Notes under the pieces: generated by a model
What the model was told of the DNA's origin: nothing
Seen by the model: the letters and a program-made list of their open reading frames with translations, nothing else
The model's database searches: none
NCBI RefSeq assembly: GCF_056746865.1
Contig: NZ_CM163382.1
Direction: 5' to 3' (one strand)
DNA: 64,000 nt
Shown: piece by piece, positions 21,607-38,559 of the stretch
How the letters are laid out: each line of letters opens with the position of its first letter
Position numbering within the stretch: the stretch's first letter is position 1
Position numbers and translations under genes: made by a program

Positions 21607-21674
21607 TGGTACACCTCACTTAAATGGATTTGATGGGCGCACACAATACAGCAAAAAAAGTGAGAAGTTAAGTA

Positions 21675-21703: not shown

Positions 21704-21810
21704 TGTGCGCAAGTTTGGGTTGCATTGCTCAAATTAAGCAACGCCCCGCAGTGCTCGCAACACATGCAGGGCGTCTAACCACCAACGATAGAAAGCGTAT
21801 CGAGGTAGCT

Positions 21811-22014
21811 ATGTTAAATCATACCACACACCCGCAAGGGCGGGACTCGCACAACCTGAATAAATACATCTGGCGTTTTATCGCCCTGAGCACCGCACAA
21901 CCACGCGTAATACACATCGAGGCCGCCAGCGAACAGGAAGCCCGTCAGCAATCCCCGGCTGGCTGCGTGATGGTATTTACTGCCCGCATCCGTCAGGGGG
22001 AATACTATGCGTGA
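21811..22014 (+). CDS. Small protein resembling satellite/prophage Icd-like cell division inhibitor family
   Basis: 67 aa from the ATG at 21811 (GAGGTA RBS). The YIWRFIALS...VIHIEAASEQEARQQSP pattern resembles Icd-like proteins of P4-type islands. This assignment is from memory only. Confidence 0.5.
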   Translation: MLNHTTHPQGRDSHNLNKYIWRFIALSTAQPRVIHIEAASEQEARQQSPAGCVMVFTARIRQGEYYA

Positions 22015-22264
22015 TGAACGATTTATTCTTCTGGAGCAAAAATTCAGTGAAGCGCCAAAAAATGAAATTGATGCTCTTTTGCATATCGCGAATATGCTAA
22101 AAGTAGCAACGTTCCTTATAGTTTCGAATCTGGAGCATGAAACGGCGTTAGATATACTGAACAGTGCTGTCGATTATTCTGAATATATTGCCGAGGATAA
22201 ATACAGGCAATTACCAGATTTGTTAGCCCATAAATATAAAGAAGAACCTCACACCGGGAAATAA
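22007..22264 (+). CDS. Hypothetical protein (85 aa); the gene is AT-rich
   Basis: ORF overlaps the upstream stop. Visibly lower GC than its neighbours. Confidence 0.5.
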   Translation: MRDERFILLEQKFSEAPKNEIDALLHIANMLKVATFLIVSNLEHETALDILNSAVDYSEYIAEDKYRQLPDLLAHKYKEEPHTGK

Positions 22265-22266
22265 AC

Positions 22267-22569
22267 ATGAAGAAGATTAAATTTACTGGCTTAAATGCCA
22301 GCGGACAGACTCACCCGAAAATCAGGATCGGGGATATTTTCCGGGATAAATATGGTGACAGCGTGGTTATTAATTCCGTGTATGAACGGCACATTACATA
22401 CCGCCGCGCAGGGTACGACTATGACTGTGTGATGCCCGTTCATCAGTTCCGGCGTGATTTTTCACTGGTATGTGCAGCACCACGCAGTAAGCCCACCAGT
22501 AAAGAGAAAGCACGGGCAAATATTCAGGTAATAAAGAACATGATTAACGCATTCAGGGGCAAGAAATGA
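22267..22569 (+). CDS. Hypothetical protein (100 aa), possibly DUF4222-like
   Basis: ORF tightly packed between neighbours. Its 3' end overlaps the primase start (ATGA). Confidence 0.5.
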   Translation: MKKIKFTGLNASGQTHPKIRIGDIFRDKYGDSVVINSVYERHITYRRAGYDYDCVMPVHQFRRDFSLVCAAPRSKPTSKEKARANIQVIKNMINAFRGKK

Positions 22570-24692
22570 AACGCGCACCGAATTTAAAGCACCAGCCGAA
22601 AGACAAAATGACGGAGGTGATTATCTTTGCGGGTAGTGATGCCTGGGCACATGCGAAAGAGTGGAGCGAATGGGCCGGAAAGCATATTGCGGCAGATGAT
22701 ACACATCCAGTTATTCTTGGACCGGAACAACTGGCGAGTCTGGCAGACACGCAAATCATCGACAAAGGGCGCTATTACGTGCGCGTTTATCGTGCTGGTG
22801 AAATATCAGAGCAGCACCTTACACAGATAGCGACACTGCTTGCAGTGGCGGGTGTGAAGGAGGCGCGTTGCTACCGCAGCTTTGTTGATCAGCAGCCGGA
22901 GGACTGGACACCGCGCATGGCTGGACTGAAGGATGATGCGGAACGCGGTAACAGTCTGGTGATCAACCTTCCGGCGAAGACAAATTTCACCGGAAATTAT
23001 GATGACGAATTAAAGCCTCGTGTTGAAAGTCGCGTCGATGGTGTTTTCTGGGTAACGCCCAAAGTGGACAAGCAGTCAGGCGAAATTATCCGGCCTGAGA
23101 CGTGGTTATGTTCTCCGCTTGAACTACTGGGAACAGGAACAATCGGCAAAGAGCATTACCGCGTGATGCGCTGGAAAAAACCAGCAAACCATGAGGTCAT
23201 TACAATGGCGGTCCCGTGCGGAGGCATTGGTGACCGTGACGGCTGGCGGTTGCTGAAAGACCACGGCCTTAACGTGACGACCAACGGCAAATACAGGGCT
23301 ATCTTGGCTGACTGGATGCAGTTAAGCGGAAACCATGAGGAATGGCAGTTAAGCACAACAACGGGGTGGCATTTTGGTGCGTACATCATGCCGGATGGTT
23401 CGATCATCGGTGAATCAGAGAAACCCATCCTGTTTACCGGAAAAACTGCCGCTGTTAATGGCTATTCCGTGGCGGGAACAGCGGAGGGCTGGCGCGATAC
23501 CGTGGCACGGCTGGCTGGTGGTAATCCGTCCATGATGCTGGGTGTGGCGGTATCGCTATCTGCACCATTAATCGGGCTGGTGGGTGCTGACGGCTTCGGG
23601 GTTCATCTTTTTGAGCAATCATCAGCAGGTAAAACCACCACACAGAACATTGCATCAAGTTTATGGGGAGAGCCGGACGCGCAACGGCTGACCTGGTACG
23701 GAACGGCGTTAGGTATCGCCAACGAGGCCGAAGCACATAATGACGGGCTGTTACCCCTGGATGAAATAGGCCAGGCCGGAAACGCACGGGAGGTGTCCAC
23801 GTCAGCCTATACGCTGTTTAACGGTTCCGGGAAATTACAGGGGGCGAAGGACGGCGGCAACAGGGAGATAAAACACTGGCGTACGGTGGCAATCAGCACC
23901 GGAGAAATGGACGTTGAAACATTCCTCAAAACGGAAGGGATAAAAATTAAAGCGGGACAGCTTGTCCGTCTGCTTAACGTACCGATGGAAAAGGCCTCGC
24001 AGTTTCACGAATACAGCACCGGAAAGGCGCACGCAGACGCGTTAAAAGATGCCTGGACAGAAAATCACGGGGCGGCAGGTCGTGAGTGGGTTAAATGGCT
24101 GGCAGGCCACCAGCAGGAGGCAAAGGACGCGGTAAGGGCATGTCGCGAGCGGTGGCGCAACCTGATACCGGAGAGCTACGGCGAGCAGGTTCACCGTGTG
24201 GGGGAAAGATTCGCCGTACTGGAGGCCGCGCTTGTGCTTTCCGGTCATGTTACAGGCTGGGATGTTCAGGCGTGCCGTGATGCAGTTCAGCATAACTTTA
24301 ATGCCTGGGTGAAGGAATTCGGCACGGGCAACAGGGAATTTAAACAGATGGTTGAACAGGCTGAGGCGTTTTTGTCGTCGTTCGGGTTCAGTCGATACCT
24401 TCCCTATCCAAACAGCGACGAGCGTGATTTACCGATTAAAGACCTTGCCGGATACAGAAAGGGGAGTATCAGAAACGAAGATGACGAGTTCCGTTTTTAC
24501 ACGTTCCCGCATGTGTTTGAGGGTGAGATAGCACAGGGATTTAATCCGTCTCACTTTGCCCGCGCGTTGAGTGCAGCCGGAATGCTGGAAGCGGGAGGCG
24601 ACCGCCGTTACAAGAAAAAGGCGCTCGGCAGGATTGGCGGGAAGCAACATATTTTTTACGTGCTGATGTTCCAGCCTGAAGCAGAAGATTAA
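22566..24692 (+). CDS. Satellite/prophage replication protein: primase-helicase with P-loop (DUF927-type)
   Basis: 708 aa. Walker A FEQSSAGKTTTQ and Walker-B-like LLPLDEIGQ. The size and its position just before the iterons match P4-alpha / PICI Pri-Rep-like proteins. Confidence 0.8.
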   Translation: MKRAPNLKHQPKDKMTEVIIFAGSDAWAHAKEWSEWAGKHIAADDTHPVILGPEQLASLADTQIIDKGRYYVRVYRAGEISEQHLTQIATLLAVAGVKEARCYRSFVDQQPEDWTPRMAGLKDDAERGNSLVINLPAKTNFTGNYDDELKPRVESRVDGVFWVTPKVDKQSGEIIRPETWLCSPLELLGTGTIGKEHYRVMRWKKPANHEVITMAVPCGGIGDRDGWRLLKDHGLNVTTNGKYRAILADWMQLSGNHEEWQLSTTTGWHFGAYIMPDGSIIGESEKPILFTGKTAAVNGYSVAGTAEGWRDTVARLAGGNPSMMLGVAVSLSAPLIGLVGADGFGVHLFEQSSAGKTTTQNIASSLWGEPDAQRLTWYGTALGIANEAEAHNDGLLPLDEIGQAGNAREVSTSAYTLFNGSGKLQGAKDGGNREIKHWRTVAISTGEMDVETFLKTEGIKIKAGQLVRLLNVPMEKASQFHEYSTGKAHADALKDAWTENHGAAGREWVKWLAGHQQEAKDAVRACRERWRNLIPESYGEQVHRVGERFAVLEAALVLSGHVTGWDVQACRDAVQHNFNAWVKEFGTGNREFKQMVEQAEAFLSSFGFSRYLPYPNSDERDLPIKDLAGYRKGSIRNEDDEFRFYTFPHVFEGEIAQGFNPSHFARALSAAGMLEAGGDRRYKKKALGRIGGKQHIFYVLMFQPEAED

Positions 24693-24716
24693 CTTCCCTG
24701 TGTGAGGTAAAAAGTT

Positions 24717-24841
24717 GCGGGTTATGCGGGTTATCCTGTGCATAAGTTAATTAACTGAATGATTAAAAAGGAAATTAATAACCCGCACGTAACCCGCAAA
24801 ACGGCAGTTATAACCCGCAAATGTGCGATTGTAACCCGCAA
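24717..24841. repeat. Iteron cluster 1 (ori/crr-like): 2 tandem TGCGGGTTA, an AT-rich spacer, then 4 inverted TAACCCGCA spaced 11/21/21 bp
   Basis: TGCGGGTTA at 24717 and 24726. TAACCCGCA at 24780, 24791, 24812 and 24833. The AT-rich core is 24745-24779. The cluster starts 25 bp after the primase stop. Confidence 0.7.
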
Positions 24842-24902
24842 AATTTCACTGTAAGAGTGTAAACAAGCGTAACTATCACGTTAAAACCGGAGAACAAACA
24901 GC

Positions 24903-25328
24903 ATGACGGCGCAAATATCAGCTTACGGGCGGCTGGTGGCTGACCCGCAGTTAAAGACCACCAGCAAGGGCACACAAATGGCGATGGCGAGTATGGCGGT
25001 CCCCCTTCCATGCAATCAGACAGATGACGGAACGGCGACGATGTGGTTATCCGTCCTGGCGTTTGGCAGACAGGCTGACGCACTGGCAAAACACCACAAA
25101 GGCGAACTGGTGAGCGTGGCCGGTAACATGCAGGTGAGCTGGTGGACGGGCCAGAACGGCGAAACGAGGCAGGGATGGCAGGTTATCGCAGACAGCGTAA
25201 TCAGTGCGCGAACGGCGCGACCGGGCGGCAAAAAAGGCCAGCAGGGGCAGGCTACTGATGCACTGAACAGGGCAAAGCAACAGACAGGCCAGCACGATGA
25301 TCCGTACGGGGACGGGATACCGTTTTAA
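24903..25328 (+). CDS. ssb: Single-stranded DNA-binding protein (OB fold) with SSB-like acidic C-terminal tip
   Basis: 141 aa. YGRLVADPQLKTTSKGTQMA... is an OB-fold pattern. A G/Q-rich linker leads to the C-terminus DDPYGDGIPF (compare E. coli SSB, ...DDDIPF). Confidence 0.7.
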   Translation: MTAQISAYGRLVADPQLKTTSKGTQMAMASMAVPLPCNQTDDGTATMWLSVLAFGRQADALAKHHKGELVSVAGNMQVSWWTGQNGETRQGWQVIADSVISARTARPGGKKGQQGQATDALNRAKQQTGQHDDPYGDGIPF

Positions 25329-25411
25329 TTCACAACAGCGAACAGAGTAATTACCCAGTGCGCCGTAAAGCCCCGTCCTTCAGGTCGGGGATATAAGGCG
25401 CGGTTTTCCAC

Positions 25412-25828
25412 CTAACTAGGTGTTTGCTGTTGTTCAATGTATTGGCGGATGATGGATATTGGCGCACCTCCGCAGCTACTGGCAAAATAGCTGGGACTCC
25501 ATAAAACGCCTTTGTAGTAATACCTGACTGCAATATCTGGTCGATCTCGTCGCAATAATCTACTCGATACGCCCTTGAGACTGTTCACCAGGGTGGATAT
25601 CGCCAATTTGGGAGGATAGTTAATTAGCAGGTGAACGTGATCTCGTTCTCCATCCATTTCAACCAGTTCAGCTTCAAAATCAGCACATACACTTGAAAAG
25701 TAAGTGCGTAGTTTTTCTATTGCGTCATGGTCAAAAATCTGGCGTCGGTACTTGGTAACAAAGACCAGGTGAACGTGCATCAGGAAGACACAGTGCCTTC
25801 CACGTCGGATATCGGTTTCTTTTTTCAT
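25412..25828 (-). CDS. tnpA: IS200/IS605 Y1 (HUH) transposase TnpA
   Basis: 138 aa from MKKETDIRRGRHCVFLMHVHLVFVTKYRR, with HUH motif HVHLL and catalytic-Tyr region SPSYFASSCGG. The longer 178-aa track ORF was rejected. Confidence 0.9.
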   Translation of the reverse strand: MKKETDIRRGRHCVFLMHVHLVFVTKYRRQIFDHDAIEKLRTYFSSVCADFEAELVEMDGERDHVHLLINYPPKLAISTLVNSLKGVSSRLLRRDRPDIAVRYYYKGVLWSPSYFASSCGGAPISIIRQYIEQQQTPS

Positions 25829-25850
25829 AGGCCAAAGTATAATTTGGCAT

Positions 25851-27059
25851 ATGAAACGACTACAAGCTTTCAAATTCCAGTTAAGACCAAATGGAAAACA
25901 GGAGCGTGAAATGAGGCGCTTCGCGGGCGCATGTCGTTTCGTTTTCAATCGTGCTCTGGCGCTTCAGAATGAGAATCATGAGGCCGGGAACAAATATATT
26001 TCTTATGCAAAGATGACTTCCTGGCTGGTTGAATGGAAAAATGCTACTGAAACGCAATGGCTTAAAGATTCTCCCTCACAGCCATTGCAGCAGTCACTGA
26101 AAGACCTTGAGCGAGCCTACAAAAATTTCTTTCAGAAGCGTGCCGCTTTTCCCCGATTCAAAAAGCGGGGACAGCATGATGCATTCCGCTATCCGCAGGG
26201 TGTTAAGCTCGATCAGGAAAACAGCCGTATTTTTCTGCCGAAACTGGGCTGGATGCGCTACCGGAACAGCCGTCAGGTCACGGGTGTTGTGAAAAATGTC
26301 ACTGTCAGCCAGTCCTGCGGTAAGTGGTACATCAGTATTCAGACAGAAAGTGAAGTATCAACTCCGGTTCACCCTTCAGCATTAATGGTCGGGCTGGATG
26401 CTGGCGTGGCTAAACTCGCCACGCTGTCAGATGGCACGGTCTTTGAGCCTGTAAACAGTTTTCATAAAAACCAGAAGAAGCTGGCGAGACTTCAGCGCCA
26501 GTTAAGCCGCAAGGTTAAATTCAGCAACAACTGGCAGAAGCAGAAACGCAAAATACAGCGACTGCATTCCCGTATCGCAAATATCCGCAGGGACTACCTT
26601 CACAAAGTCACAACGACCATCAGCAAAAACCACGCAATGATAGTCATTGAGGATTTGAAGGTCAGCAACATGTCAAAGTCAGCCTCGGGTACGGTCAGCC
26701 AGCCGGGGCGCAATGTCCGGGCAAAATCAGGTTTAAACCGTTCGATACTGGATCAGGGCTGGTATGAAATGCGCCGTCAGCTTGAGTACAAGCAGCTCTG
26801 GTGTGGCGGTCAGGTGCTTGCTGTTCCGCCAGCGTACACAAGCCAGCGTTGCGCGTGCTGTGGTCATACAGCGAAAGAAAATCGCCTGTCACAAAGTCAA
26901 TTCAGATGCCAGGTATGTGGATATACAGCGAACGCCGATGTAAACGGCGCTCGTAACATTTTAGCGGCGGGGCACGCCGTTCTTGCCTGTGGAGGGATGG
27001 TGCAGTCAGGCCGCCCGTTGAAGCAGGAACCCACCGAAATGATTCAGGCGACAGCCTGA
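25851..27059 (+). CDS. tnpB: TnpB (OrfB_IS605) RuvC-like RNA-guided nuclease
   Basis: 402 aa. RuvC triad contexts GLDAGV, VIEDLK and ADVNGARNI, plus a zinc finger CACCGH...CQVCG. All appear intact. Confidence 0.9.
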
Positions 27060-27264
27060 ACGTAGCAGGAATCCACGTCCTTCAGGGCGTGGAGGATGTC
27101 AAATATCAATGCGACGACTGGAATGTTCCAGGAAGGCACAGAGGCCACCGAAGCAACCGGATAATTTAGAAGACCTGAAACGGTCGCTTAAACGCACTGA
27201 AAAAGAAATGGGGATAGATGGGATCGGGAAATCAGTATGGCGTAACTACCAGAAGTAAGCACAG

Positions 27265-27289
27265 AGCCGGAGCAATCCGGCTTTTTTTT
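27265..27289 (+). terminator. Rho-independent terminator
   Basis: AGCCGG-AGCAAT-CCGGCT hairpin followed by T8. Confidence 0.6.
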
Positions 27290-27389
27290 GGCTGAAATCA
27301 ATCAATCTGTTTTTGTGATAGAAATATATTTATCTACCACTTTTTTCGATCAATAATGTGCATAATTTAGTCATTAAGAGGAAATTGCT

Positions 27390-27596
27390 GTGAATTGTAT
27401 TAACGACCTGAACACAGGCGATGTCAGAGGTGGTTCCGTTCATCTGGATGCACAGACCGTGATGCGCCTTAAGCAGTACAGAATCGACCATGTGAACAAT
27501 CACCCTGATCAGCCATTACCAGGCGTGGCGCAGATTGTCAGACATGCCGTAAACGCCTGGCTTAATCAGAATGGTTTTGCATCGGGGGGTGAGTAA
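27390..27596 (+). CDS. Small RHH-like protein (68 aa, GTG start) preceding the giant-protein operon
   Basis: GAGGA RBS. SVHLDAQTVMRLKQYRIDH...GVAQIVRHAVNAWL fits a strand-helix-helix pattern. Confidence 0.45.
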   Translation: MNCINDLNTGDVRGGSVHLDAQTVMRLKQYRIDHVNNHPDQPLPGVAQIVRHAVNAWLNQNGFASGGE

Positions 27597-27692
27597 TGAA
27601 TCGCTGGTACAGCATCAAAGCAGAGGGACGCCAATGTTATCTAACTCAGGTTTTATGAATTCTGACTCCCGATTCAAAATAGGAGGTTACTA

Positions 27693-30224
27693 ATGCCAGT
27701 CGTACCAACAGTATCCGGACGTCAGGTTGAGAGCCGTGGAGTTCAGTCAGCAGGCTTGCAGACGTTTTCTCAGCCAGGTATTGGTGATGCTTTTGTTCGG
27801 GCAGGGGCAGAGGCAATTGATGTTTTTGGTCAGGCAAAACAGCGTGCCAATATTGCCTTGATTCAGGAGGCATCCCTTAAACTCAGTCAGATAGGCAGTG
27901 ATCTGCTGAATAATCCTGAAACAGGATTGCTTAACCTGAAAGGGAAAAATGCTATTGGAAAAGGCCATGAGTATACACAGCAGTTTGATGCTCAGATCGA
28001 ACAACTGGCTATGTCGCTGCCGGATGAACAGGCTCGTAATGCTTTCATGCAGCAGGCGCAGCAGCAGCGTATTCAGTTCGCTACGCAGGCCGGGAGGTAC
28101 GAGATAGGGCAAATAAATGCCTACGAAGAAGGCCAGTTTCAGGCGACACTGCTGAATAATGGTAAAAATGCCTCAGCATTATATGGCGACAACGCAGCAT
28201 ACATATTGGCTAATACGCAAACTTTCCAGCAAATTGAGGATTACGGTATTGCGCATGGCTGGAGCGACGAGCAAATCCAGGCCAAGAAAATCGAGTTTAA
28301 AGAAGCAACAGCAAAAGCAACTGCTCAAAATGCTATTGGAGCAAACTATCTTCAGGTAAGACAGCAAAATGGCGAGTTAAGCGATACTGCTGCTGGATCT
28401 CGCCGTGCTGTAGCAGATAGTGGCTCTTCCGATCGTACCCGCGGTATACGCAACAATAACCCCGGCAATCTTGAATACAGCAAAACTAATCCGTGGATTG
28501 GGCAGACTGGTGATGATGGTCGCTTTGCCAAATTCGAAACCCCTGAACACGGTATTCGCGCGCTTGGTCGCAATTTGCTGTCGTATCAGCGTCAGGGTTA
28601 TGACACCATCAGCGAAATAATTAATCGCTGGGCACCGGCCAGTGATGATAATAAAACTGATGCTTATATACGGGCAGTATGTGCTCAGCTCGGTGTAACT
28701 CCTGACCAGCCGCTTGACGCATCAAATCCTGACACACTGAAATCTCTGTGCAAAGCAATTATTCATCATGAGCAAGGCAGTCAGCCGTACAGTGATCAGC
28801 AATTGGCCGCTGGCGTTAGTGCCGCACTGGGGCTTTCTCAGCTACCGACAAAAAATAAACGTTATACCGGTGTAGCCTGGTTCGATGCTTTAAGTGAATC
28901 AGATCAGGCCAGCGTGTTGCGACAGACGGATGCATTAGCCAGACAGCAGCAGGCTGAATATAGAACGATGCTCGAAAGCCGGGTTCGCGATGCAACGGCT
29001 GCGTATATGCGTGGCGTTGAATTTCCTAACCCGCCTGGTGAGGGTGAGTTCATTGCTGCTTATGGTGTCAGAGAAGGAAACCTGCGATATACCGAGTTCA
29101 GAAATTTGCAGATCGCCGGACAGTATATAGGCTCTTTCCGCAACATGCCGACAAGCAGCATTACCGCATATGTTGAGCAATTACGCCCGGATACTGGTGA
29201 GACAGGGGAGGGGTATGCGTCTCGTGCGGAGTTATTCGACCGGGTATCGGCGGCAGCCACGAAGGTAATAACCCAGAGGCAGAATAATCCGTTTAGTGCA
29301 GCGGTGGAAATCGGAGCCTATAAGCCGATCACCAGCAACAACCCTGACGACATCACTGCCGAGGTGGCTAACCGTTTCTCGTCGCAGGAAAGCTTACGCG
29401 CGTTGGGAATTAATGCCCCACTCCTCAACAGTGAAGAGGCGGCTGCGCTGGCACAGCAGGTGCGCGGCACTCAGAACGTTGACCAGACAATTAAACTGTT
29501 GCAGAGCATGGGGGAGAAGCTGCCTGCGCCAGCAATACGGCAGGTGGCATCTGTAATTGCTCCGAACAGTGCGGCAACAGCCTATTCTGCGCTGCTGCTG
29601 GGCACGCCGGATAACCAGTACGACAACACCAGGCCGACGATCCCATATAGTCAGTTCATCGGGTATAAGCCGACGATGAACAAGTACGACGTTGCAAAGG
29701 TTATTCTTTCCGGCGACCAACTACTGAATCCGACGAAGGCCATGAAGAATGCGGGCATAACTCCGGTACAGTTGCCGAGCGAAGATAAGATGAAAGACGC
29801 TTTCGACGAACAGGTAGGTAATGCATTTGCCCGTAACCCGCAGTTACGCCAGATCAGTTATAGCCTTTTCAAAGCCGCTTACGCAGGAATAGCTTATCAA
29901 TCTGGTGATGCCTCTACGGTAAGAACCAGTATGCCTGATACAGACATTGTAGCTGATGCCGTGAAGTATGCTACTGGCGGTATATACAATGGTTTTAATG
30001 GCGGCGACGTTGTAATGCCTTTTGGCATGGATAAATCTACTTTCAAAGATCGCTATACCACATCTGCGAAACAAGCACTGAAAGATGCCGGACTTAACGT
30101 AAATGCAGTGTCAAATTTCACGCCAGTTAATATCGGCAATAACCGGTATCGGCTTGTAAATGGTAGCGGACGCTGGGCAACAGATCCCAGAACCAATAAA
30201 GCTATTGTCGTGAGGGTTGAATAA
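27693..30224 (+). CDS. Large protein (843 aa); candidate phage internal-virion/ejection-type protein with an RNNNPGN-motif central domain
   Basis: Strong AGGAGG RBS. N-terminus MPVVPTVSGRQVESRGVQSAGLQ. Q/A-rich helical regions. GIRNNNPGNLEY at nt 28449-28469. No nucleotide-binding motifs seen. The function call is tentative. Confidence 0.75.
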   Translation: MPVVPTVSGRQVESRGVQSAGLQTFSQPGIGDAFVRAGAEAIDVFGQAKQRANIALIQEASLKLSQIGSDLLNNPETGLLNLKGKNAIGKGHEYTQQFDAQIEQLAMSLPDEQARNAFMQQAQQQRIQFATQAGRYEIGQINAYEEGQFQATLLNNGKNASALYGDNAAYILANTQTFQQIEDYGIAHGWSDEQIQAKKIEFKEATAKATAQNAIGANYLQVRQQNGELSDTAAGSRRAVADSGSSDRTRGIRNNNPGNLEYSKTNPWIGQTGDDGRFAKFETPEHGIRALGRNLLSYQRQGYDTISEIINRWAPASDDNKTDAYIRAVCAQLGVTPDQPLDASNPDTLKSLCKAIIHHEQGSQPYSDQQLAAGVSAALGLSQLPTKNKRYTGVAWFDALSESDQASVLRQTDALARQQQAEYRTMLESRVRDATAAYMRGVEFPNPPGEGEFIAAYGVREGNLRYTEFRNLQIAGQYIGSFRNMPTSSITAYVEQLRPDTGETGEGYASRAELFDRVSAAATKVITQRQNNPFSAAVEIGAYKPITSNNPDDITAEVANRFSSQESLRALGINAPLLNSEEAAALAQQVRGTQNVDQTIKLLQSMGEKLPAPAIRQVASVIAPNSAATAYSALLLGTPDNQYDNTRPTIPYSQFIGYKPTMNKYDVAKVILSGDQLLNPTKAMKNAGITPVQLPSEDKMKDAFDEQVGNAFARNPQLRQISYSLFKAAYAGIAYQSGDASTVRTSMPDTDIVADAVKYATGGIYNGFNGGDVVMPFGMDKSTFKDRYTTSAKQALKDAGLNVNAVSNFTPVNIGNNRYRLVNGSGRWATDPRTNKAIVVRVE

Positions 30225-32284
30225 TGTCTGATGTTTTTTCTTTGGCTCCAGAAGGTCAGGCATGGATTGACGACAAAACAGTTGCCAACCCAGCAAGGCC
30301 AGAAGACTACGATCCGACTCCCTTCCAGGGTTCAGGTACTGCACTTTTGAGCGGCGTGGCGGAGGGGGCTCTCGGTCTCGCGCAGTCTGCCGTCGGATTC
30401 AGCAAGCGTCTGATTAGCGATCCGGCATTTACCGCAGACGTGGCACCGACAGTTAATATTTTTCGGGAGATGTTCCCTGATGCTGACAAAACACTGAATG
30501 ATACATACGACACGATCGGAAAACAGTTACAGGATGCCCGCAGCTATGTGAAGCCTGATGCAGGCAGCCAGGGAATGGCGGCTGAGGTATTAAATGAGCT
30601 TGGTAAATTTGTTCCTGCAATCGGAACAACTATGTTTGGTGGTCCGCTCATCGGCGCTGCTACAGCCTTCAGTTCTACGTATGAGCAGTCCTATCAGGAT
30701 TTTAAAGGGAAGGGAGTAGACGAGGCTACAGCGCGTAACCTGGCAACGCAGCAGAGCCTTTTCAATGCTGTGGGTATGGCCTTACCCGCTGCCGTCGGCA
30801 CCACACTGGCAACGCGCATTGCCTCAGGTGTGGCAATCAACACCGGATTCGGTGGACTGAACCGTTACTCAGTAGGCGCAACACTGGAGGAAAAAGGCTA
30901 CACGGAGATGGCAAAACAGTATCGGGTATTTGACGGTCAGGCGATGTTAGTCGATGCCGTTTTAGGCGGGGTCTTTGGTGGCGTTCATCACCTGACTACC
31001 CATAATAACCATGATGGTACAGAGTCGAACATTTCTGCAGAAGAAATAAAATCAACTTTTGGTGAACATTATCAGCAATCTCCTGATGGTAACATTGAGT
31101 CAATGGTTCGTGATTTATCTGATTCAGGAGTAATAGAACTTATTAATGAACCAGCAATAAAAAATAGTGATGGAGAAATACTTCTGAATAAAGGTCATGT
31201 GACAGTAGCTTCCGGAAAAGAACCAATAATAAGAATAAATATTAATGGATTAAAAGACCATGAAGAACTGTTAGAAACCCTTCATCACGAGGCGCTTCAT
31301 CTTGAGCAGCGCCATTACCCTGACTGGAAGGCCAGAAAGCTAGCTAATGCTGTACTTAAATCTGCAAACAAGCATTCTGACTATCCTGAATTTGCATATG
31401 GGATGTCACAATATTATGAATATAAGAAAAGGGGTGAGTACCCTGAAACATATCCTGAGTGGTTGTACGCTGAAGAAGTTGCCGCACATGCAGTAAATCC
31501 ATCTCTAAAGACAAGCGTTTCATCATGGGAAAAAATTATTTCAGGTTTTAAAGCCTATATATTCAGATACAGTGGTATTCAGGTTGGAACCGTTACACCT
31601 GAGCAGTTACGGTTACTCGTAAGTATGCGTCTTCGCAATATGAAACTGGAAGCCGCAGTAGAAAAAGTTTTTGGTATCCGGGCGAGGGAAAGAATAAAAC
31701 CAAGCGATATTGATGCAGCCCACATTTTGAATGAGGGGCTTCATTACGATATTGAATCGTCACCAGTGCTTCATACCAGCAATGAGAGCATCAACAGCCA
31801 TGTTGACGCCATGGATGAAGCATACAGGCAACTTAATGATGGTCAGCCTGTAAATGTTGGGGGGATGGCGCGAGGGCTTGATGGTCCATTGCGATCAGAT
31901 ATATCTGATACTTACCAAGAGCAATACCATGAAATACAAAAGGTTTTTGAAGAAAATGGTGTCAGATACGAAACATCATCAGAGCCAATTAGTGAATCGC
32001 CTGTCCCTCGTGCTGAAAGTGCTTTCTCATCGGCTGGTGAACACAGAGGGGACATCAGCGTTGATCCAGATACAGGGCAGGTTCTCTCATCCAACAGCTA
32101 TGACCTTATGGCTGCCAGGGACATGGCTGTTGCCAATCCTGAGCTGACTATAGCTCACCCGGAAACCGGAAACCCGACAAAACTTTCTGATCTCCTGGCT
32201 GAGTTGGATGAACAGATTAAGACAGTCCAGAACGAATCGAAGGTTTATTCTGTAGCAGCAGCGTGCTTCTTGAGGAACCCATAA
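30224..32284 (+). CDS. Large protein (686 aa) with Gly/Ala-rich hydrophobic segments and an internal HExxH (zincin-like) module
   Basis: TAATG overlap with the upstream gene. Hydrophobic G/A-rich stretches (GTTMFGGPLIGAATAF, AVGMALPAAVGTTLATRIASGVAINTGFGG). HHEALH at nt 31283-31300 within an AT-rich segment. Confidence 0.75.
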   Translation: MSDVFSLAPEGQAWIDDKTVANPARPEDYDPTPFQGSGTALLSGVAEGALGLAQSAVGFSKRLISDPAFTADVAPTVNIFREMFPDADKTLNDTYDTIGKQLQDARSYVKPDAGSQGMAAEVLNELGKFVPAIGTTMFGGPLIGAATAFSSTYEQSYQDFKGKGVDEATARNLATQQSLFNAVGMALPAAVGTTLATRIASGVAINTGFGGLNRYSVGATLEEKGYTEMAKQYRVFDGQAMLVDAVLGGVFGGVHHLTTHNNHDGTESNISAEEIKSTFGEHYQQSPDGNIESMVRDLSDSGVIELINEPAIKNSDGEILLNKGHVTVASGKEPIIRININGLKDHEELLETLHHEALHLEQRHYPDWKARKLANAVLKSANKHSDYPEFAYGMSQYYEYKKRGEYPETYPEWLYAEEVAAHAVNPSLKTSVSSWEKIISGFKAYIFRYSGIQVGTVTPEQLRLLVSMRLRNMKLEAAVEKVFGIRARERIKPSDIDAAHILNEGLHYDIESSPVLHTSNESINSHVDAMDEAYRQLNDGQPVNVGGMARGLDGPLRSDISDTYQEQYHEIQKVFEENGVRYETSSEPISESPVPRAESAFSSAGEHRGDISVDPDTGQVLSSNSYDLMAARDMAVANPELTIAHPETGNPTKLSDLLAELDEQIKTVQNESKVYSVAAACFLRNP

Positions 32285-35040
32285 TGAAACAGGCATGTGT
32301 GGAAGCTATTGCGCAGACACTTGGTCGCCAGCCAAAGGCTGATGAGCTGAAAAATATTGAAGATCGTATCAAAGAAGCTGTGCAGCATGTGCACAGAAAG
32401 AATGCCAAAGAAGGCAAAAGTGGTATTCCTGATGCTCAAACATACATGGATGCAGCAGAACTGGTACGCCAGCGTGTGGTTCATGATGTGTACAAGAAAA
32501 GACAGCGTGTTGCCCAGAATGCGATCGCCATCAGTAAAATTACTGACACTCTCGATGCTAACATCCCGCCTGATCAGCAGACACCTGTTAATTTGCAGCA
32601 GTTTATTTTTGCTGGCCGACGATCGAGAGACAAAGCTGATATCTCCGTTACTTCTGCTGAAGAACTTGCAATTGGGGCATATCAGGACTGGTCCCGTCAG
32701 CTCAGTGCTGAACTTCTAAAAGCAGGTGATGACGTCCGCAAATTCTTCGAGCAGAGCAGGGCGCTTGGAGAGCAGCGGTTTCGGAGTGTATTCGACAGGC
32801 AGGCGGCAAAGTCTGCACAACTCCAGATCCTGAAAGAAATATATGGCGAAGATACCGGGAATCCCCTGGCGAAGAAAATTGCACAGATTTGGAAGGATGT
32901 AACAGGCCGTGTTCGTCATGAGATGAACGACAATGGCTTTGACATAGGCCTGCGAGAAGACTGGCATACGCCATATGTGGATGATGCTGACCTTATTCGC
33001 AATGCCGGGCGCGAAGAATGGCTGGCATCGTTACCAGTGGCAGAGCAAGCTACAGCACGTCTTTCAGGTCGCCAGCCACCGATTGAGTTTGCCCGCCAGA
33101 AATGGGTTGATGACGCTTACAACACGCAGGATCGCAGCAATTACGTTAATCCTGACGGCAGCATTATGAATGACGTCGAGTACCGTCAGGCACTGGAAGC
33201 GATCTTTGAAACGAAGGCCACTGATGGGGCAAACAAAATTGAGCCTGGTACATTTATGGGAGCCGGAGGAATAAAGAGCCGTGGTTCTCAGCACAGGGTG
33301 ATGGCGTTCAAGGATGCGCAGTCACACTTCGCCTATATGGAACGATACACTCAGCAGCCGCTGGTGGGGGTGATGATGTCGCACCTGCAATCATCATCCA
33401 GGGATTTGGGCGTCGTTAAAGCCTTTGGTCCGGACGCCGAAAGAAACTTTTCCCTGGTACTGGATCGCATCTATAAGCGCGCAGTAACAGGCGGGAAACG
33501 CAAAAAAGAAATGGAGGATGAGGCCAAATTAGTTGCCCGTATGTTCAACTCAATGGCTGGCCTAAATGGTGTCGCTTCATCGAGTGTGTTCTCTTCAGCA
33601 GTTGGTGGTCTGCGTAACCTGATGACCAGCGCCATGCTTGGCACCAGCGTACTGACAGCAACCAGCGACCAGGCAATTATGCGGGCAAATGCGCAGGCGC
33701 TGGGCTTTACCCGTGGTGGAATGCGGCTTTCCGTTAACACTATCAAAAACCTGTTTAGTGGAGATGCCAAAAAGGCGAATGCTGAACTCGGTCTGCTGGT
33801 GGATTCACATGCTGCTGTGGTTTCGAAAATGGGCGGGTTTGACTTGTCTCGCGGCATAACTGGCTGGTTCGCAGAGAAGACACTGAAGTGGTCCGGGCTG
33901 ATCGCTATGGACCGCGCAAACAAAGCGTCGTTTGGTCTCCTGATGTACAAAAACATTGGCGAGCTGACCAGAAAATTTAAGACGCTGGACGATATGAAAG
34001 GAACCGATAAAACCATTCTGGCTAACAAGGGATGGAGCAATGAGGACTGGGCCATCATGGCAGCGGCAGAACTCAGGCCGATGACTACTGCCGGGCATAT
34101 GGGGATGACGCCAGACGCGATTTACGCTGTGCCCGATAACGTAATAGCCGACATTATGGCAGACCGTATTACCCGGATTCGTGCCGGGAGTGAAAAGGCA
34201 CTGGCAGCCCTTGGAGATCTCCCTCCAGAACGCCTGAAACGGATGAAAGAAGCATTCGACGCTGAGGCTGAGCAGACCATCACGCGCATGATTCGTAATG
34301 CACGCGCTGAAGCAGCCCAGAAATTGCTGGGAATTACGCACGGTGAGATGACCAATGCTGTGACCACCGCTACGGGTATTGATACATATGCCCGTGATGA
34401 TGCTGGCGAGTTAATGAAGAGCTTCATGCTCTTCAAAACAACCCCATTTGCTGGATTTCGGCAACTTGTTAACAGAACACGGGATTTGGACACCGTTCCG
34501 GCCATTAAATTTCTGGCCTCATATATCGGGGGAACAACTCTTGCTGGTATGTTTGCGATCCAGATGAACAGTTTGTTAAATGGTAATGATCCGCTGGATA
34601 TGACAAAACCAACCACATGGGTTCAGGCTTTACTGAAAGGTGGTTCGTTCGGTATCTACGGTGATTTTATTTTCCAGGACCATACGCAATATGGCTCCAG
34701 CATCGGTGCCACTATGGGTGGCCCTGTGTTGAGCTTTGCAGAGCAGTTAACAAAATTACTGATTACTAACCCACAGAAGGCTCTACAGGGTGAAGAAACA
34801 TCATTCGGTGCCGATGCACTGAAAACAGCCCGCATGATCACCCCATTCGCAAACCTGTGGTATGCGAAAGCGATAACCAATCACCTGATATTGCAACAAC
34901 TTCAGGAGATGGCAAACCCTGGTTACAATGATCGAGTAAGGGACCGCGCGCAACGGGAGTTCGACATAACGAGTTGGTGGGAACCGGGTGCTATTGCGCC
35001 ACGTAGAGCACCGGATTTTGGAAAGGCGGTGGGGAACTGA
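32284..35040 (+). CDS. Large protein (918 aa), unknown function; candidate ejection/structural-type protein
   Basis: ATG at 32284 in a TAATG overlap (preferred over the track start at 32263). Long uninterrupted frame with only antisense shadow ORFs opposite. C-terminal hydrophobic G-rich region (IGGTTLAGMFAIQMN...GGSFGIYGDFIF). Confidence 0.75.
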   Translation: MKQACVEAIAQTLGRQPKADELKNIEDRIKEAVQHVHRKNAKEGKSGIPDAQTYMDAAELVRQRVVHDVYKKRQRVAQNAIAISKITDTLDANIPPDQQTPVNLQQFIFAGRRSRDKADISVTSAEELAIGAYQDWSRQLSAELLKAGDDVRKFFEQSRALGEQRFRSVFDRQAAKSAQLQILKEIYGEDTGNPLAKKIAQIWKDVTGRVRHEMNDNGFDIGLREDWHTPYVDDADLIRNAGREEWLASLPVAEQATARLSGRQPPIEFARQKWVDDAYNTQDRSNYVNPDGSIMNDVEYRQALEAIFETKATDGANKIEPGTFMGAGGIKSRGSQHRVMAFKDAQSHFAYMERYTQQPLVGVMMSHLQSSSRDLGVVKAFGPDAERNFSLVLDRIYKRAVTGGKRKKEMEDEAKLVARMFNSMAGLNGVASSSVFSSAVGGLRNLMTSAMLGTSVLTATSDQAIMRANAQALGFTRGGMRLSVNTIKNLFSGDAKKANAELGLLVDSHAAVVSKMGGFDLSRGITGWFAEKTLKWSGLIAMDRANKASFGLLMYKNIGELTRKFKTLDDMKGTDKTILANKGWSNEDWAIMAAAELRPMTTAGHMGMTPDAIYAVPDNVIADIMADRITRIRAGSEKALAALGDLPPERLKRMKEAFDAEAEQTITRMIRNARAEAAQKLLGITHGEMTNAVTTATGIDTYARDDAGELMKSFMLFKTTPFAGFRQLVNRTRDLDTVPAIKFLASYIGGTTLAGMFAIQMNSLLNGNDPLDMTKPTTWVQALLKGGSFGIYGDFIFQDHTQYGSSIGATMGGPVLSFAEQLTKLLITNPQKALQGEETSFGADALKTARMITPFANLWYAKAITNHLILQQLQEMANPGYNDRVRDRAQREFDITSWWEPGAIAPRRAPDFGKAVGN

Positions 35041-35354
35041 TGACGAGAGATAAAATTGAATATATTGCTTCTCTTAAATATGAAGCTGAGAAATGGAGAA
35101 GGATTGGCGGGTGGGGAACATTAATATCACTCTCTGCTTTACTTATAGACTCCTGGTTCAGACATATTGATGCAGCATCATTACTTTTTGAATCAGCAGT
35201 ACTTGGTGGATTCATTTGCTGTTGGGGTGGTAATTATGATCGGGCGTCCAAACATAAGAGAGAACTTGACGCGATATGTTTTGCTTTATTCGGTAAGGAT
35301 TACGAAAGTTCTGACCTTGATATAATTGAATTCAACAAAACGGAACTATCGTGA
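35040..35354 (+). CDS. Small predicted two-TM membrane protein (104 aa), last gene of the operon
   Basis: TGATG overlap with the upstream gene. Hydrophobic segments WGTLISLSALLIDSWF and SAVLGGFICCWGG. AT-rich. Confidence 0.55.
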   Translation: MTRDKIEYIASLKYEAEKWRRIGGWGTLISLSALLIDSWFRHIDAASLLFESAVLGGFICCWGGNYDRASKHKRELDAICFALFGKDYESSDLDIIEFNKTELS

Positions 35355-35362
35355 CATGTCAC

Positions 35363-35387
35363 AGGCCGCTTTCGCGGCCTTGTTTTT
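35363..35387 (+). terminator. Rho-independent terminator of the giant-protein operon
   Basis: AGGCCGC-TTTC-GCGGCCT hairpin followed by TGTTTTT, 9 nt after the stop codon. Confidence 0.65.
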
Positions 35388-36058
35388 AACGAATGCCACC
35401 GCCGCCCGGGCGGGAATTCGCAGATAAAAAAGCACGCTGCACGGTTTTATTAATACTTATACCATTAGGATTGATCCTTCAATGGACAATCCTTCCATCG
35501 TGTGGCCAGCCATTCATATTCTTTGTCTTTTCTTCAGTATCGGCTTTGCATCTTCTACACCCTGAAAGATGTCGTTTTATGGTGTATCTGATGATTTATT
35601 CCCTAACAATAGATATTCGAAAAATTAATCAGTTAAAACAATTATTTGGATAATTTCAGGTAAAACTATCTTAATCTTCTGGTGGATCTCAATGCGTAGT
35701 GACGGTATCGGGATTAAGGGCGTGGATATTCGCGATATATGCCGCTACACCCCTCAACAGTAATAGATATGAGCTTTTCACGCTCTCCTTTCACTGCTGA
35801 GAACGGCAACAACGTGCCACAGGAACGCGCTGTAATCGATTCTGACGCACTTAATTGCGTTGGGTAATGGTTTTTGCCAGCCTGTGGGGGTAACTCTGTT
35901 TTATGAGGCTTTGGCTATAGTGCAAAAATACACTTTGTCTTGCCTCTCAATTTGATGAGACTGGAACGACAACAGGACAGACCACCAGCAACAGTTACCG
36001 TATTCAGCCGTTCTGTGGCACCAGTGGAACTATCAACCCCTGCTTTCAGCAATGTGTT

Positions 36059-36212
36059 TGCGGGTTATTTTGGGGCGTTTGCGGGTTATTTGGGATGTTT
36101 TGCGGGTTATGTGATGCTTGAATAATGAACAGTGTATTTTGCAACATATTGATACTAAAGAACAAAAAATAGTTAGCATACTAAGATAACCCGGTAACCC
36201 GCATAACCCGCA
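36059..36212. repeat. Iteron cluster 2: 3 TGCGGGTTA spaced 21/21 bp, an AT-rich spacer, then tandem inverted TAACCCGCA copies; a mirror image of cluster 1
   Basis: TGCGGGTTA at 36059, 36080 and 36101. TAACCCGG (degenerate) at 36187 and TAACCCGCA at 36195 and 36204. The AT-rich core is about 36121-36186. Confidence 0.65.
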
Positions 36213-36618
36213 CTGTTTTGTATATATATACGAAAAATTGCATTCAGGAGGGGGGGAGCGAAATCCCTACAATCCATTGCTTATGGGACCGCCCGCCTCG
36301 TCAAATTTTTACACCCGCGAAATAAAAAAATACTTCACGCTGGTGGGCATGATGCTGATATGGGAGGCTTCCATAACGCCACCATTCGGAACTATGCAAA
36401 TCTGCATAGAAAAGGGGATGCCTGATACAATACCCTCGCCCGATAAAATCACACCGATAAACTCATCTGCCACGAGTAGAAAGAGCGAACGAACCCGATA
36501 CGCAGTAATGCTTGTCGGGTACAGCTTTTTAAGGCGGCTGTAGATATCAGGCCATCCGTGATCATCCACCAGCGAGATAGCCGATAACGATGACGCATAA
36601 CCCTCAAGCGAGGGATAA

Positions 36619-36642
36619 ATGTGTATAGAAATGTGTATAGAA
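36619..36642. repeat. Tandem 12-bp repeat ATGTGTATAGAA x2; candidate integrase arm-type sites
   Basis: Exact tandem copies 62-85 bp left of the right core. GTGTATAG also occurs at 16921-16928, and inverted (CTATACAC) at 16962-16969, next to the int start at the other end. Confidence 0.35.
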
Positions 36643-36699
36643 TTGATTTTAGAACTCGCAGGATTCGCGCTATTACTGGCCTTGTGTGATGTTGTATTG

Positions 36700-36718
36700 T
36701 TCCCTTCGCCCGCTCCAA
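36700..36718 (+). other. Right island junction (attR-like): an 18-nt copy of a tRNA 3' end (TTCCCTTCGCCCGCTCCA) plus A; not a complete tRNA
   Basis: It matches the T-arm/acceptor/CCA end of E. coli tRNA-Gly(CCC) glyU as I remember it (…GGTTCGATTCCCTTCGCCCGCTCCA). Upstream sequence has no tRNA body. The 15-nt core is repeated at 16792-16806. Confidence 0.7.
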
Positions 36719-36949
36719 TTTATCTTCACCTCATCAACCTGCCATTTTTGTTGTATCTGATTTTCTATATTATCTTAATTCAATCGCTTCAGACTTTTCG
36801 CAATCGCCGTAATACTTCCCCATTTTTTTGTAAATAAAAGCGTTTACGCAATGCAATCCATTTGTAACAACCCAGGTAAAATACCTTATTTTCAAGTTGT
36901 TAAATAAGTGGTTATCTACGCTTTTAACAAACGATTGATGGAATCTTTT

Positions 36950-38559
36950 ATGAAAGGGAAATCTACATTAACTCTTCTGCTCGCTGGTATATTTTCATGC
37001 TGCACATGCCAGGCGACAGGGGCAGAAGTGACGAGTGAATCTGTATTTAACATTCTTAATTCCACGGGGGCAGCAACTGATAAAAGTTATTTATCGTTAA
37101 ATCCAGATAAGTATCCTAATTATCGTCTTCTGATTCACTCAGCCAAATTAAAAAATGAAATAAAGAGCCACTATACCAAAGACGAAATTCAAGGATTGTT
37201 AACATTAACAGAAAATACACGAAAGTTAACGTTGACGGAGAAACCATGGGGAACATTTATTCTTGCTTCTACTTTCGAAGATGACAAAACAGCGGCAGAA
37301 ACCCACTATGATGCTGTCTGGCTGAGGGATAGTTTATGGGGCTATATGGCATTAGTATCAGATCAGGAAAATAGTGTAGCCGCAAAAAAGGTTCTGCTCA
37401 CTCTGTGGGATTATATGTCTACGCCAGACCAGATTAAACGGATGCAGGACGTCATTAGCAACCCAAAACGACTGGATGGTATTCCTGGGCAAATGAATGC
37501 TGTGCATATCCGATTTGACAGCAACTCCCCCGTGATGGCAGATGTGCAGGAAGAAGGCAAGCCGCAGCTGTGGAACCATAAACAAAATGATGCGTTAGGT
37601 CTTTATCTTGATCTCCTTATACAAGCAATCGACACTGGTACTATTAACGCTGAAGATTGGCAAAAAGGTGACCGATTAAAATCGGTTGCGCTGCTGATTG
37701 CTTATCTGGATAAAGCCAATTTCTATGTTATGGAAGATTCCGGAGCGTGGGAAGAAGATGCCAGATTAAACACATCTTCCGTTGCACTGGTGACCTCTGG
37801 ACTGGAACGTTTGTCGAACTTACTCTCGAAGAAAGACTCTGTTTTTGTCTCTGATTTACTACGCGAAGCTAAAGCTAATGAACTGGATGAACCACTTTCA
37901 ACAACGAGGTTGAACCACCTCATAGATAAAGGTTATGAAAGAATAACGTTACAGCTTGATTTAGGGGGAGAATCCCCAGGTTATCTGGAAAAAGATAAAC
38001 ATTACAGAGAAGCCGATGCGGCTTTACTTAATGTTATTTATCCTGCAAATCTTTCAAAGATAAATACCAGAAGAAAAGAGCAAGTTCTAAAAATAGTTAA
38101 AAAACTAGCAGGTCCGTATGGTATAAAAAGATACGAGAAGGATAATTATCAGTCGGCAAATTTTGGTTCAATGATATTAAAACCGATACCGATCAAAATT
38201 CACATGCAAAAAGAGAAATGAGCTTCATTCCATCAACAGAAGCAGAATGGTTTTTTGACTCATGGTATGCAAAATCAGCAGCAATTGTTTATAAAGAATC
38301 AAGAAAAGAAGAGTATTTGAATGACTCAGTGCAATTTATGAATAGATCATTGGCCCAAATAACAGGCGAGAATATGATTGGTGCAAATGGCAGGAGCGTA
38401 CCTGAAATGGCACTTCCCGAAAGCTATAACTATATCCACAAGTCAGGAACTTTGCATGAAGCGCCAAGCCCTATCATTCCGCTAAACTGGTCGAAAGCCT
38501 CAATGACTCTTATGTTGAAAGAAATGTCCAATCTTATCAATGATGAGGGAATTAAATAG
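36950..38559 (+). pseudogene. ygeQ: GH15-like (glucoamylase/YgeQ-family) secreted glycoside hydrolase, split by a frameshift near 38158-38220
   Basis: Signal/lipobox-like N-terminus MKGKSTLTLLLAGIFSCC. GH15-like DAVWLRDSLWGYMAL. The second ORF (38218-38559) continues in the -1 frame, and that frame stays open back to about 38155 (GKFWFNDIKTDTDQNSHAKRE). The likely slip is in the AAATTTT run. Confidence 0.65.

Follow-up and report, generated by a model that had tools for sequence, protein, structure and literature searches.

Why should an island of the phage-satellite type carry an operon of three very large proteins of the kind that short-tailed phages package inside their virions? This question is raised by positions 27390-35354 of the DNA studied here, a stretch of 64,000 nucleotides (nt) from contig NZ_CM163382.1 of RefSeq assembly GCF_056746865.1, which in its entirety is termed the window. 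A sequence-only reading had seen an ejectosome-like module of podophage internal-virion proteins on a satellite-type island, and the core of this proposal is supported by homology and by the presence of the hallmarks of phage-inducible chromosomal islands (PICIs). The window element is a PICI-type satellite with an ejection-protein cargo stemming from the podophage genus Uetakevirus, and it has one published analogue, the ejection-protein set of which has gone unrecognized.

The cargo operon and the identity of its products

The cargo comprises four open reading frames (ORFs), A to D (843, 686, 918 and 104 aa), that are linked exactly by TAATG, TAATG and TGATG overlaps. An AGGAGG ribosome binding site (27681-27686) is located 6 nt 5' of the ATG of A. 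The features of the operon and its leader are:

27263-27284, + strand: terminator-like hairpin 5' of the leader gene and the cargo operon (hairpin scan)
27390-27596, + strand: leader gene, 68 aa, GTG start, part of the satellite backbone, possibly encoding a ribbon-helix-helix (RHH) protein (phrog_4934, E 2e-31)
27693-30224, + strand: A, 843 aa, homologue of epsilon15 gp15 at the position of internal virion protein C (IVP-C) (phrog_992, E 4e-289)
30224-32284, + strand: B, 686 aa, homologue of epsilon15 gp16 with an orphan central domain (phrog_1145, E 2e-136)
32284-35040, + strand: C, 918 aa, homologue of epsilon15 gp17 (IVP-D, T7 gp16 family) (phrog_684, E 2.5e-295)
35040-35354, + strand: D, 104 aa, gp18 position, two hydrophobic segments
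35363-35380, + strand: terminator-like hairpin after D that closes the operon, within a 75-bp segment 98.7% identical to a phiV10-like prophage

The ORF sizes, the chain of overlaps, the small upstream gene, the AGGAGG sequence and the downstream terminator had all been described in the sequence-only reading and were recovered at the same positions. For C, the mechanical ORF starting from GTG 32263 comprises 925 aa; the ATG start, resulting in 918 aa, was chosen because of the TAATG overlap and because the resulting length equals that of epsilon15 gp17. The earlier RHH label of the leader gene stays unconfirmed. Its AlphaFold2 (AF2) model exhibits a strand-helix-helix topology at a predicted local distance difference test score (pLDDT) of 62 and found no fold match in the PDB by Foldseek, and a tblastn search against phage records yielded no match either. 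Homology of the leader gene with epsilon15 gp3 was considered, since both comprise 207 nt, but was rejected as there is no similarity.

Scans of A to D against Pfam and NCBIfam yielded nothing that reached a curated cut-off. Profiles from PHROGs match A ("head protein"), B and C ("virion structural protein") end to end, with E-values far outside the range of chance. In DNA and protein searches of phage records, the block turned out to correspond to gp15-gp16-gp17 of podophages of the epsilon15/phiV10 type, i.e., the genus Uetakevirus. On the amino acid level, identity to epsilon15 amounts to 89% for C (gp17), 79% for A (gp15) and 83% and 74% for the two ends of B (gp16), while the centre of B has no homology to gp16. 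Epsilon15-like core proteins, which the sequence-only reading had named as one target for comparison, are therefore the actual homologues of A to C. Gene order, lengths, translational coupling and the terminator are as in the Uetakevirus arrangement gp15-gp16-gp17-small membrane gene. Several complete epsilon15-like prophages have a homologue of D (82-84% aa identity) after gp17, and D is therefore considered an allele at the gp18 position; its hydropathy profile features two moderately hydrophobic segments. According to Hardies et al. (2016, PMC4819975), epsilon15 gp17 belongs to the T7 IVP-D (gp16) family, gp15 and gp16 take the position of IVP-C, and gp13 and gp14 represent IVP-A and IVP-B, respectively.

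Residues ~248-403 of A (~nt 28425-28901) hold the motif GIRNNNPGNLEY...RWAP and match Gp29 in PDB 9vvp (E 5.5e-39) and the "Endolysin" in PDB 7q47 (E 2.3e-16) as well as endolysin/transglycosylase families of PHROGs. From the two PDB matches, it follows that A carries a muralytic domain. The earlier statement that no enzymatic defence motifs are visible has to be corrected insofar as A contains this muralytic domain and B an HEALH motif. No match to defence systems was found when the five operon proteins were compared with PADLOC models. When 25 morphogenesis and lysis proteins from epsilon15 and phiV10-type phages were used as tblastn queries against the 64-kb window, matches were obtained for gp15, gp16 and gp17 alone, in full agreement with the earlier observation that neither portal nor capsid, terminase or tail genes accompany the operon. 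IVP-A and IVP-B (gp13 and gp14) are likewise absent from the cargo. On the strength of these sequence comparisons, we regard the cargo as a complete, co-adapted set of large internal-virion/ejection proteins plus the membrane protein of the gp18 position.

The island is a predicted PICI-type satellite

By its gene content, the region ~16792-36717 is assigned to the PICI-type phage satellites, namely to the lineage of EcCIMP1 from E. coli MP1. The island spans ~19.9 kb including a 1.75-kb insertion sequence (IS) and ~19.5 kb without the IS. Besides those listed above, it exhibits the following features:

16792-16805, unstranded: attL core, the last 14 nt of tRNA-Gly (glyU); homology to the glyU island of SCU-105 begins at 16792, inside the tRNA 3' end
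16931-18184, + strand: tyrosine integrase (Pfam Phage_integrase, Phage_int_M, Arm-DNA-bind_3), 66% aa identity to the EcCIMP1 integrase
19338-19535, + strand: AlpA-family regulator (Pfam PF05930, E 2.4e-19)
19611-20435, + strand: AntA/AntB antirepressor gene (Pfam AntA), 74% aa identity to EcCIMP1 AntA
20428-20985, + strand: Bro-N gene (Pfam Bro-N)
22267-22569, + strand: DUF4222 gene (Pfam PF13973)
22566-24692, + strand: DUF927 primase/replicase (Pfam DUF927, E 1e-46; phrog_1139 DNA primase, E 4e-174), 62% aa identity to EcCIMP1
24903-25328, + strand: SSB (Pfam SSB)
25355-27102, unstranded: IS200/IS605 insertion (gap in the SCU-105 alignment; Pfam Y1_Tnp, OrfB_IS605)
25412-25948, - strand: tnpA of the IS
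25851-27059, + strand: tnpB of the IS, encoding TnpB with a Cas12f-like TNB domain
27103-27260, + strand: PerC remnant, C-terminal part (Pfam PF06069, profile positions 40-88 of 90)
27625-35424, + strand: phage-derived block with phiV10-like flanks (27682-29227 and 35350-35424) and an epsilon15-like core (29228-35349)
36700-36717, unstranded: attR, 18-nt repeat of the glyU 3' end, TTCCCTTCGCCCGCTCCA

The hallmarks of PICIs (integrase, AlpA, DUF927 primase, PerC and att repeats) are present, and genes for capsid, terminase and lysis functions are absent. In complete E. coli genomes, near-identical islands with the same annotation are flanked by glyU on one side and by the ETT2 type III secretion island on the other. 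In the window itself, ARAGORN detected no tRNA and thus no glyU gene, such that the earlier designation as a glyU-sited island has to be corrected for this copy: only the att core is present. Among the island copies examined, the IS200/IS605 element occurs in that of the window alone, where it took the place of ~1 kb with a ProQ/FinO gene, a hypothetical gene and the 5' part of perC. RefSeq marks perC as frameshifted in each of the island copies considered in this respect (L002, L010, L011, L012 and L014), reflecting either an old inactivation or a wrong gene model.

Distribution, intactness and selection

The island version of the module is present in 36 of 5,426 complete E. coli genomes with 96.9-99.9% nt identity. 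Two att sites are occupied, glyU and a site between yicC and dinD, the second one with a different integrase and partly different accessory genes. Common to both is the string primase-SSB-ProQ-PerC-leader-A-B-C. A pattern search of genome contigs with C retrieved only four loci, all of them complete prophages, the patterns being too strict for islands. In IMG/VR, relatives of C are encoded at 71 loci, 54 of which represent ordinary phage contexts and six island contexts. The operon is found in complete prophages as well as in near-identical glyU islands; the sequence-only reading had proposed to look for it in complete phage genomes and in other glyU islands.

None of the five copies examined deviates from the full lengths of 843, 686 and 918 aa for A, B and C, respectively. 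In comparisons within the island lineage, B exhibits 19 synonymous differences and a single nonsynonymous one, corresponding to a ratio of nonsynonymous to synonymous divergence (dN/dS) of 0.015; the values are 0.07 for C (16 synonymous, four nonsynonymous) and 0.19 for A. Between island lineages, A features two patches of dense, recombination-like substitution (codons ~301-360 and ~721-780). Synonymous divergence (dS) from phage copies is saturated (1.4-2.4), which argues for an old capture and not for a recent remnant. Both joints are precise. Phage-type DNA begins in the gp14/gp15 intergenic region (~27625-27682) and stops with the 75-bp terminator segment (35350-35424). The gene at the gp18 position is allelic among island copies, with two unrelated small ORFs and no D in the extraintestinal pathogenic E. 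coli (ExPEC) strain XM (L011, 19738-20452).

Mosaicism and alternative ejection sets in one slot

With regard to the origin of its parts, the set is chimeric. Residues 1-180 of A share 92-95% aa identity with phiV10 p18 vs. 67-78% with epsilon15, while from residue ~540 of A onward the set is of the epsilon15 type and 11-47% identical to phiV10. In E. coli F11 (L014, 12994-20568), the same glyU backbone carries all three genes in their phiV10-type version (2514, 1803 and 2475 nt) plus two small downstream genes. This cargo, a type found in about four strains, begins exactly at the gp15 start codon and, over 7.6 kb, matches a phiV10-like prophage with 96.9% identity. In both island types, the cargo is enclosed by phiV10-like flanks.

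Alternative cargo also occurs on related backbones. A sister island has the leader gene in common (91% aa identity) together with its upstream region (89% nt identity over 27261-27621), and there the cargo consists of a gene for a ClpP-protease/major-capsid fusion, accompanied by fragments of tail genes and by a DUF1441 gene. This sister island is located near tRNA-Ile in E. coli FDAARGOS_1260 (L003, 8057-18021), and its type is present in many E. coli genomes. A second island lineage accounts for three of the six island contexts in IMG/VR (L056, L058 and L066). It encodes a 61% identical primase (Zn-ribbon/Toprim/DUF927), Ash, SSB and a different leader of 75 aa, followed by its own epsilon15-type set (genes for 837, 632 and 918 aa) and, 3' of it, an Abi_2 abortive-infection gene. 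Ejection sets fill the same slot in at least three backbones, namely those of EcCIMP1, of the window type and of the L056 type.

The central part of B deserves separate consideration. An orphan domain of ~200 aa with the sequence HEALH (HExxH) takes the place of the gp16 centre at residues ~278-479 (nt 31055-31660) and sits in a stretch of low GC content (0.40 over 31001-32000). Among the 71 IMG/VR loci, it is restricted to E. coli island copies and absent from phage-context loci. No match was found in Pfam or by a word search of 5.8 billion proteins, and exhaustive HMMER searches over 1.84 billion representative proteins returned a self-fragment only. In tblastn against phages, polyvalent proteins of the DarB-like antirestriction type from Ralstonia phages were matched marginally (E 3e-3). 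With a pLDDT of 42, the AF2 model is too poor for use. Speculatively, the domain may be a satellite-specific effector that is injected into the recipient.

As a side observation, a circular "non-mobilizable plasmid" of 17,779 bp from Raoultella ornithinolytica, pB3.H1.26.c19 (L087), encodes an integrase, AlpA, a DUF927-type primase and SSB. It is PICI-like and has a related primase, and no ejection genes were found on it; possibly, it represents an excised satellite that was assembled as a plasmid. A circular 19.2-kb record from Klebsiella pneumoniae with a related primase looks similar.

Comparison with known satellites and phages

The closest counterpart of the window island, EcCIMP1, is moved by the podophage vB_EcoP_Kapi1 (Pick, Stadel and Raivio, 2025, PMC11773190). 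It is excised only upon induction of Kapi1, is transduced by this phage, does not lower Kapi1 titres after induction and adds superinfection immunity against its helper by an unexplained mechanism, no known defence system having been detected (PMC11773190). Its authors listed the genes in the ejection block as candidates for "DNA packaging" and did not recognize a satellite-borne ejection set (PMC11773190). Our analysis revealed that, 3' of the DUF927 primase, EcCIMP1 encodes a DUF2824 protein (P22 gp14), P22_gp7 (PF25688), an injectosome translocase (PF16928, gp20) and an SLT-containing "DNA transfer protein" of the gp16 type, and that these ejection genes stand in P22 gene order. The two islands agree in the order of their backbones (integrase, AlpA-type helix-turn-helix protein, AntA/AntB, DUF4222, Icd-like, DUF927 primase, ejection block, PerC), in backbone proteins that are 62-74% identical, in the position of the ejection block directly 3' of the primase and in the absence of capsid, terminase and lysis genes. 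They differ in that the P22-type set of EcCIMP1 includes equivalents of IVP-A and IVP-B whereas the window island has the large Uetakevirus IVP-C/D genes only, in that the EcCIMP1 cargo is devoid of sequence similarity to A to D, and in the att site, which is thrW in EcCIMP1 vs. glyU or yicC/dinD. The parallel is therefore one of function and position, not of sequence. The earlier assertion that no system of such composition has been described can be upheld insofar as our literature search revealed no paper describing satellite-borne ejection sets as such, but has to be modified because a validated PICI, EcCIMP1, carries a P22-type set at the same position.

The phages epsilon15 and phiV10 have the order gp15-gp16-gp17-gp18, the gene lengths, the coupling and the terminator in common with the island. 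In contrast to the situation in these phages, the island block is detached from gp11-gp14 and from the portal, capsid, terminase, tailspike and lysis genes, and it differs from epsilon15 by the phiV10-type N-terminus of A and the orphan HEALH domain in B. A complete or defective Uetakevirus prophage was rejected as an explanation, as genes for terminase, portal, capsid, gp11/gp12, gp13/gp14, tailspike and lysis proteins are all absent and the block lies inside an att-bounded island.

Capsid-forming PICIs (cf-PICIs) possess their own capsid, portal, connector and terminase genes and take tails from the helper, while classical PICIs encode Rpp or capsid-size factors. Both cf-PICIs and classical Gram-negative PICIs of the EcCICFT073 type resemble the window island in having virion or morphogenesis functions 3' of the replication module; unlike them, the window island has ejection/internal proteins as its sole virion functions. 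Membership in the cf-PICIs was rejected, as neither tblastn nor the annotation of near-identical islands revealed an own capsid, portal, head-tail connector or large terminase. P4-like satellites are likewise enterobacterial integrative elements with a primase, an AlpA-type regulator and an Icd-like gene, but the candidate helper of the window island is a podophage and not a P2-like myophage. Membership in this group was also rejected, since Psu, Sid, Delta and a P4 alpha-type primase are neither annotated in near-identical islands nor found in Pfam scans of the island ORFs; in this comparison, an Icd-like gene was the only one in common.

Candidate helpers and proposed role of the cargo

The helpers of the island are probably temperate Uetakevirus podophages of the phiV10/epsilon15 type. 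Helper-dependent excision is known experimentally for the relative EcCIMP1; for the window-type island, the link consists in co-residence with Uetakevirus prophages. ExPEC XM, for example, holds the island with the epsilon15-type set next to a complete phiV10-like prophage, the set of which is a divergent one. Moreover, island genomes are enriched for a second Uetakevirus-type copy: a second copy of the 5' segment of A is present in 11 of the 29 island genomes assessed vs. 6.8% of other genomes (odds ratio 8.3, p 2e-6; not corrected for clonal relatedness). The phiV10-type set occurs in prophages of ~300 E. coli genomes, and the window-type island mostly carries the epsilon15-type set. Outside the cargo, phiV10-type phages and the island have in common only a Bro-N gene (54-58% aa identity) and a distant integrase. 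Bro-N of the island is a possible point of regulatory cross-talk with the helper. In phiV10-type phages, the Bro-N homologue is located directly 3' of the ejection block.

The sequences show the identity, architecture and conservation of the cargo, the exchange of cassettes and the co-residence with candidate helpers. On this basis and by analogy with other phages, we favour, with some reserve, the view that A to C enter capsids built by the helper and act as the ejection conduit of the particles made in island-bearing cells. The cargo operon would be expressed once the helper enters lytic growth, and A to C would be loaded into procapsids built by the helper. Because the island lacks gp13 and gp14, the helper-like N-terminal ~180 aa of A are suggested to dock on the gp14/portal stack of the helper. 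The particles would then bear a satellite-encoded ejection conduit with the muralytic domain of A, and the orphan HExxH domain of B would go into the next cell. The payoff would be control over DNA entry, possibly including entry into cells that exclude the ejection set of the helper itself; better establishment of the satellite DNA is another possible benefit, and some damage to helper virions via mixed sets a possible by-product. In phage P22, complete foreign E-protein sets assemble and work while mixed gp16/gp20 pairs lead to non-infectious particles, and the ejection set determines sensitivity to SieA exclusion (PMC10461980). The failure of mixed sets and the functioning of complete foreign sets would explain why whole co-adapted sets are kept and swapped. 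With 39-40 kb, a Uetakevirus genome is about twice as long as the island without its IS, and we infer that two island copies would fill one head.

Several observations weigh against this proposal. The co-occurrence statistic ignores clonal relatedness, and 18 of the 29 island genomes assessed are without a second copy. No terS- or pac-like similarity was detected between the island and the candidate helpers, and no function for capsid-size redirection was recognized. A comparison of the leader region of the operon with complete epsilon15, with partial phiV10 and prophage loci and with EcCIMP1 revealed no regulatory DNA in common, helper late regions included. The roles of epsilon15 gp15-17 are only partly resolved, with a location in either the virion core or the tail hub. 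The transduction rate of EcCIMP1 is very low, and its ejection genes have never been assayed (PMC11773190). The copy in the window, finally, is short of ProQ, the hypothetical gene and part of perC owing to the IS, and also of its tRNA-side flank, and may be impaired in regulation or excision.

It appears unlikely to us that the cargo serves interference or exclusion only, with A to C acting as dominant-negative competitors in helper virions or as an envelope block against superinfecting relatives, i.e., as a satellite-borne defence. Mixed P22/Sf6 ejection sets do give non-infectious particles, mismatch would be the rule for a mostly epsilon15-type set facing phiV10-type prophages in ~300 genomes, the helper-like N-terminus of A would secure incorporation, and the superinfection immunity conferred by EcCIMP1, for which no known defence system was detected, points in the same direction. 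For such poisoning, however, one mismatched gene would suffice, yet complete sets of 2,447 aa are under purifying selection over their full length and are swapped as whole cassettes. The F11-type set, ~97% identical to that of the resident helper type, would not poison this helper, Kapi1 titres after induction were not lowered by EcCIMP1, and there are no PADLOC matches. Still less probable is a role as a mere cassette reservoir or hitch-hiker, that is, a passenger without island function that was captured by recombination via common flanks and is re-imported from functional phages. The phiV10-like flanks in both island types, the recombination-like patches in A and the near-identity of the F11 cargo (96.9%) to the resident prophage would fit this explanation. 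On the other hand, the epsilon15-type core is at saturated dS from every sampled phage copy and the central domain of B occurs in no phage-context locus, with nothing but a self-fragment among 1.84 billion proteins, which argues against refreshment from the sampled phages. Furthermore, ejection sets fill the slot in three or more backbones, and the cargo is preceded by a leader gene and promoter region of the satellite that are conserved and drive capsid genes in the sister island.

A decaying Uetakevirus prophage remnant beside an integrase/primase island, finally, is highly improbable and largely refuted. In the sequence-only reading, an ordinary prophage block left behind by deletion had been put forward as a counter-explanation, and one half of it is correct, as the same genes are ordinary constituents of complete prophages. 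The locus in the window is not a remnant, though: its ORFs are full-length with dN/dS values of 0.015-0.19, its joints are precise (gp14/gp15 intergenic region on the left, operon terminator on the right), the block lies inside an att-bounded island and moves with two integrases and att sites, and the 25-protein tblastn search found the other phage morphogenesis and lysis genes to be absent from the window. A stranded podophage fragment, one of the options offered earlier, is contradicted by purifying selection, by the two att sites and integrases, by the swap for a phiV10-type set and by the second island lineage.

Surroundings of the island in the window

The left flank of the island is not formed by the body of glyU but by a cysDN-iap-CRISPR-cas (type I-E) locus with a 5'-truncated cas5e (16115-16810). 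The sequence is homologous to the cas locus up to 16798 and to the island from 16792 on, placing the crossover within 7 bp (CTTCGCC) shared with the att core. The orientation is compatible with an inversion of the integrase type that involved attL and a secondary site in cas5e and would have split the cas operon, with an assembly chimera as the alternative; none of the complete E. coli genomes has this junction. Two short type I-E CRISPR arrays (13477-13934; 61-nt period, repeat CGGTTTATCCCCGCTGGCGCGGGGAACAC) are located 5' of the truncated cas set. Right of the island, a glycoside hydrolase family 15 gene (36908-38559) is present as two ORFs of 437 and 113 aa and is probably frameshifted, as its SCU-105 counterpart is one undivided gene of 1,611 nt.

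Implications for satellites of short-tailed phages

Known satellite piracy concerns capsid size (P4 and Staphylococcus aureus pathogenicity islands, SaPI), packaging specificity (TerS, Rpp, Ppi) or whole capsids (cf-PICI). If A to C indeed equip helper-built particles, a more tentative generalization suggests itself, namely that the satellites of short-tailed phages constitute a class with a strategy of its own, in which exchangeable complete ejection cassettes re-arm helper particles and give the satellite control over DNA entry, with no remodelling of capsids or redirection of packaging, and in which the HExxH domain of B is a satellite-specific effector delivered to the recipient cell. The proposed role of A to C lends itself to direct tests because natural strains such as ExPEC XM and PU-1 combine the island with a candidate helper. 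The islands also provide a natural system for studying which parts of podophage ejection proteins govern incorporation as opposed to function, and how ejection sets and superinfection exclusion interplay. If the proposal is true, genome delivery would be an added stage of the conflict between helpers and satellites, the unexplained genes of EcCIMP1 would be assigned a function, and the same might hold for a part of the unclassified "Type C" PICI-like elements, which number in the thousands.

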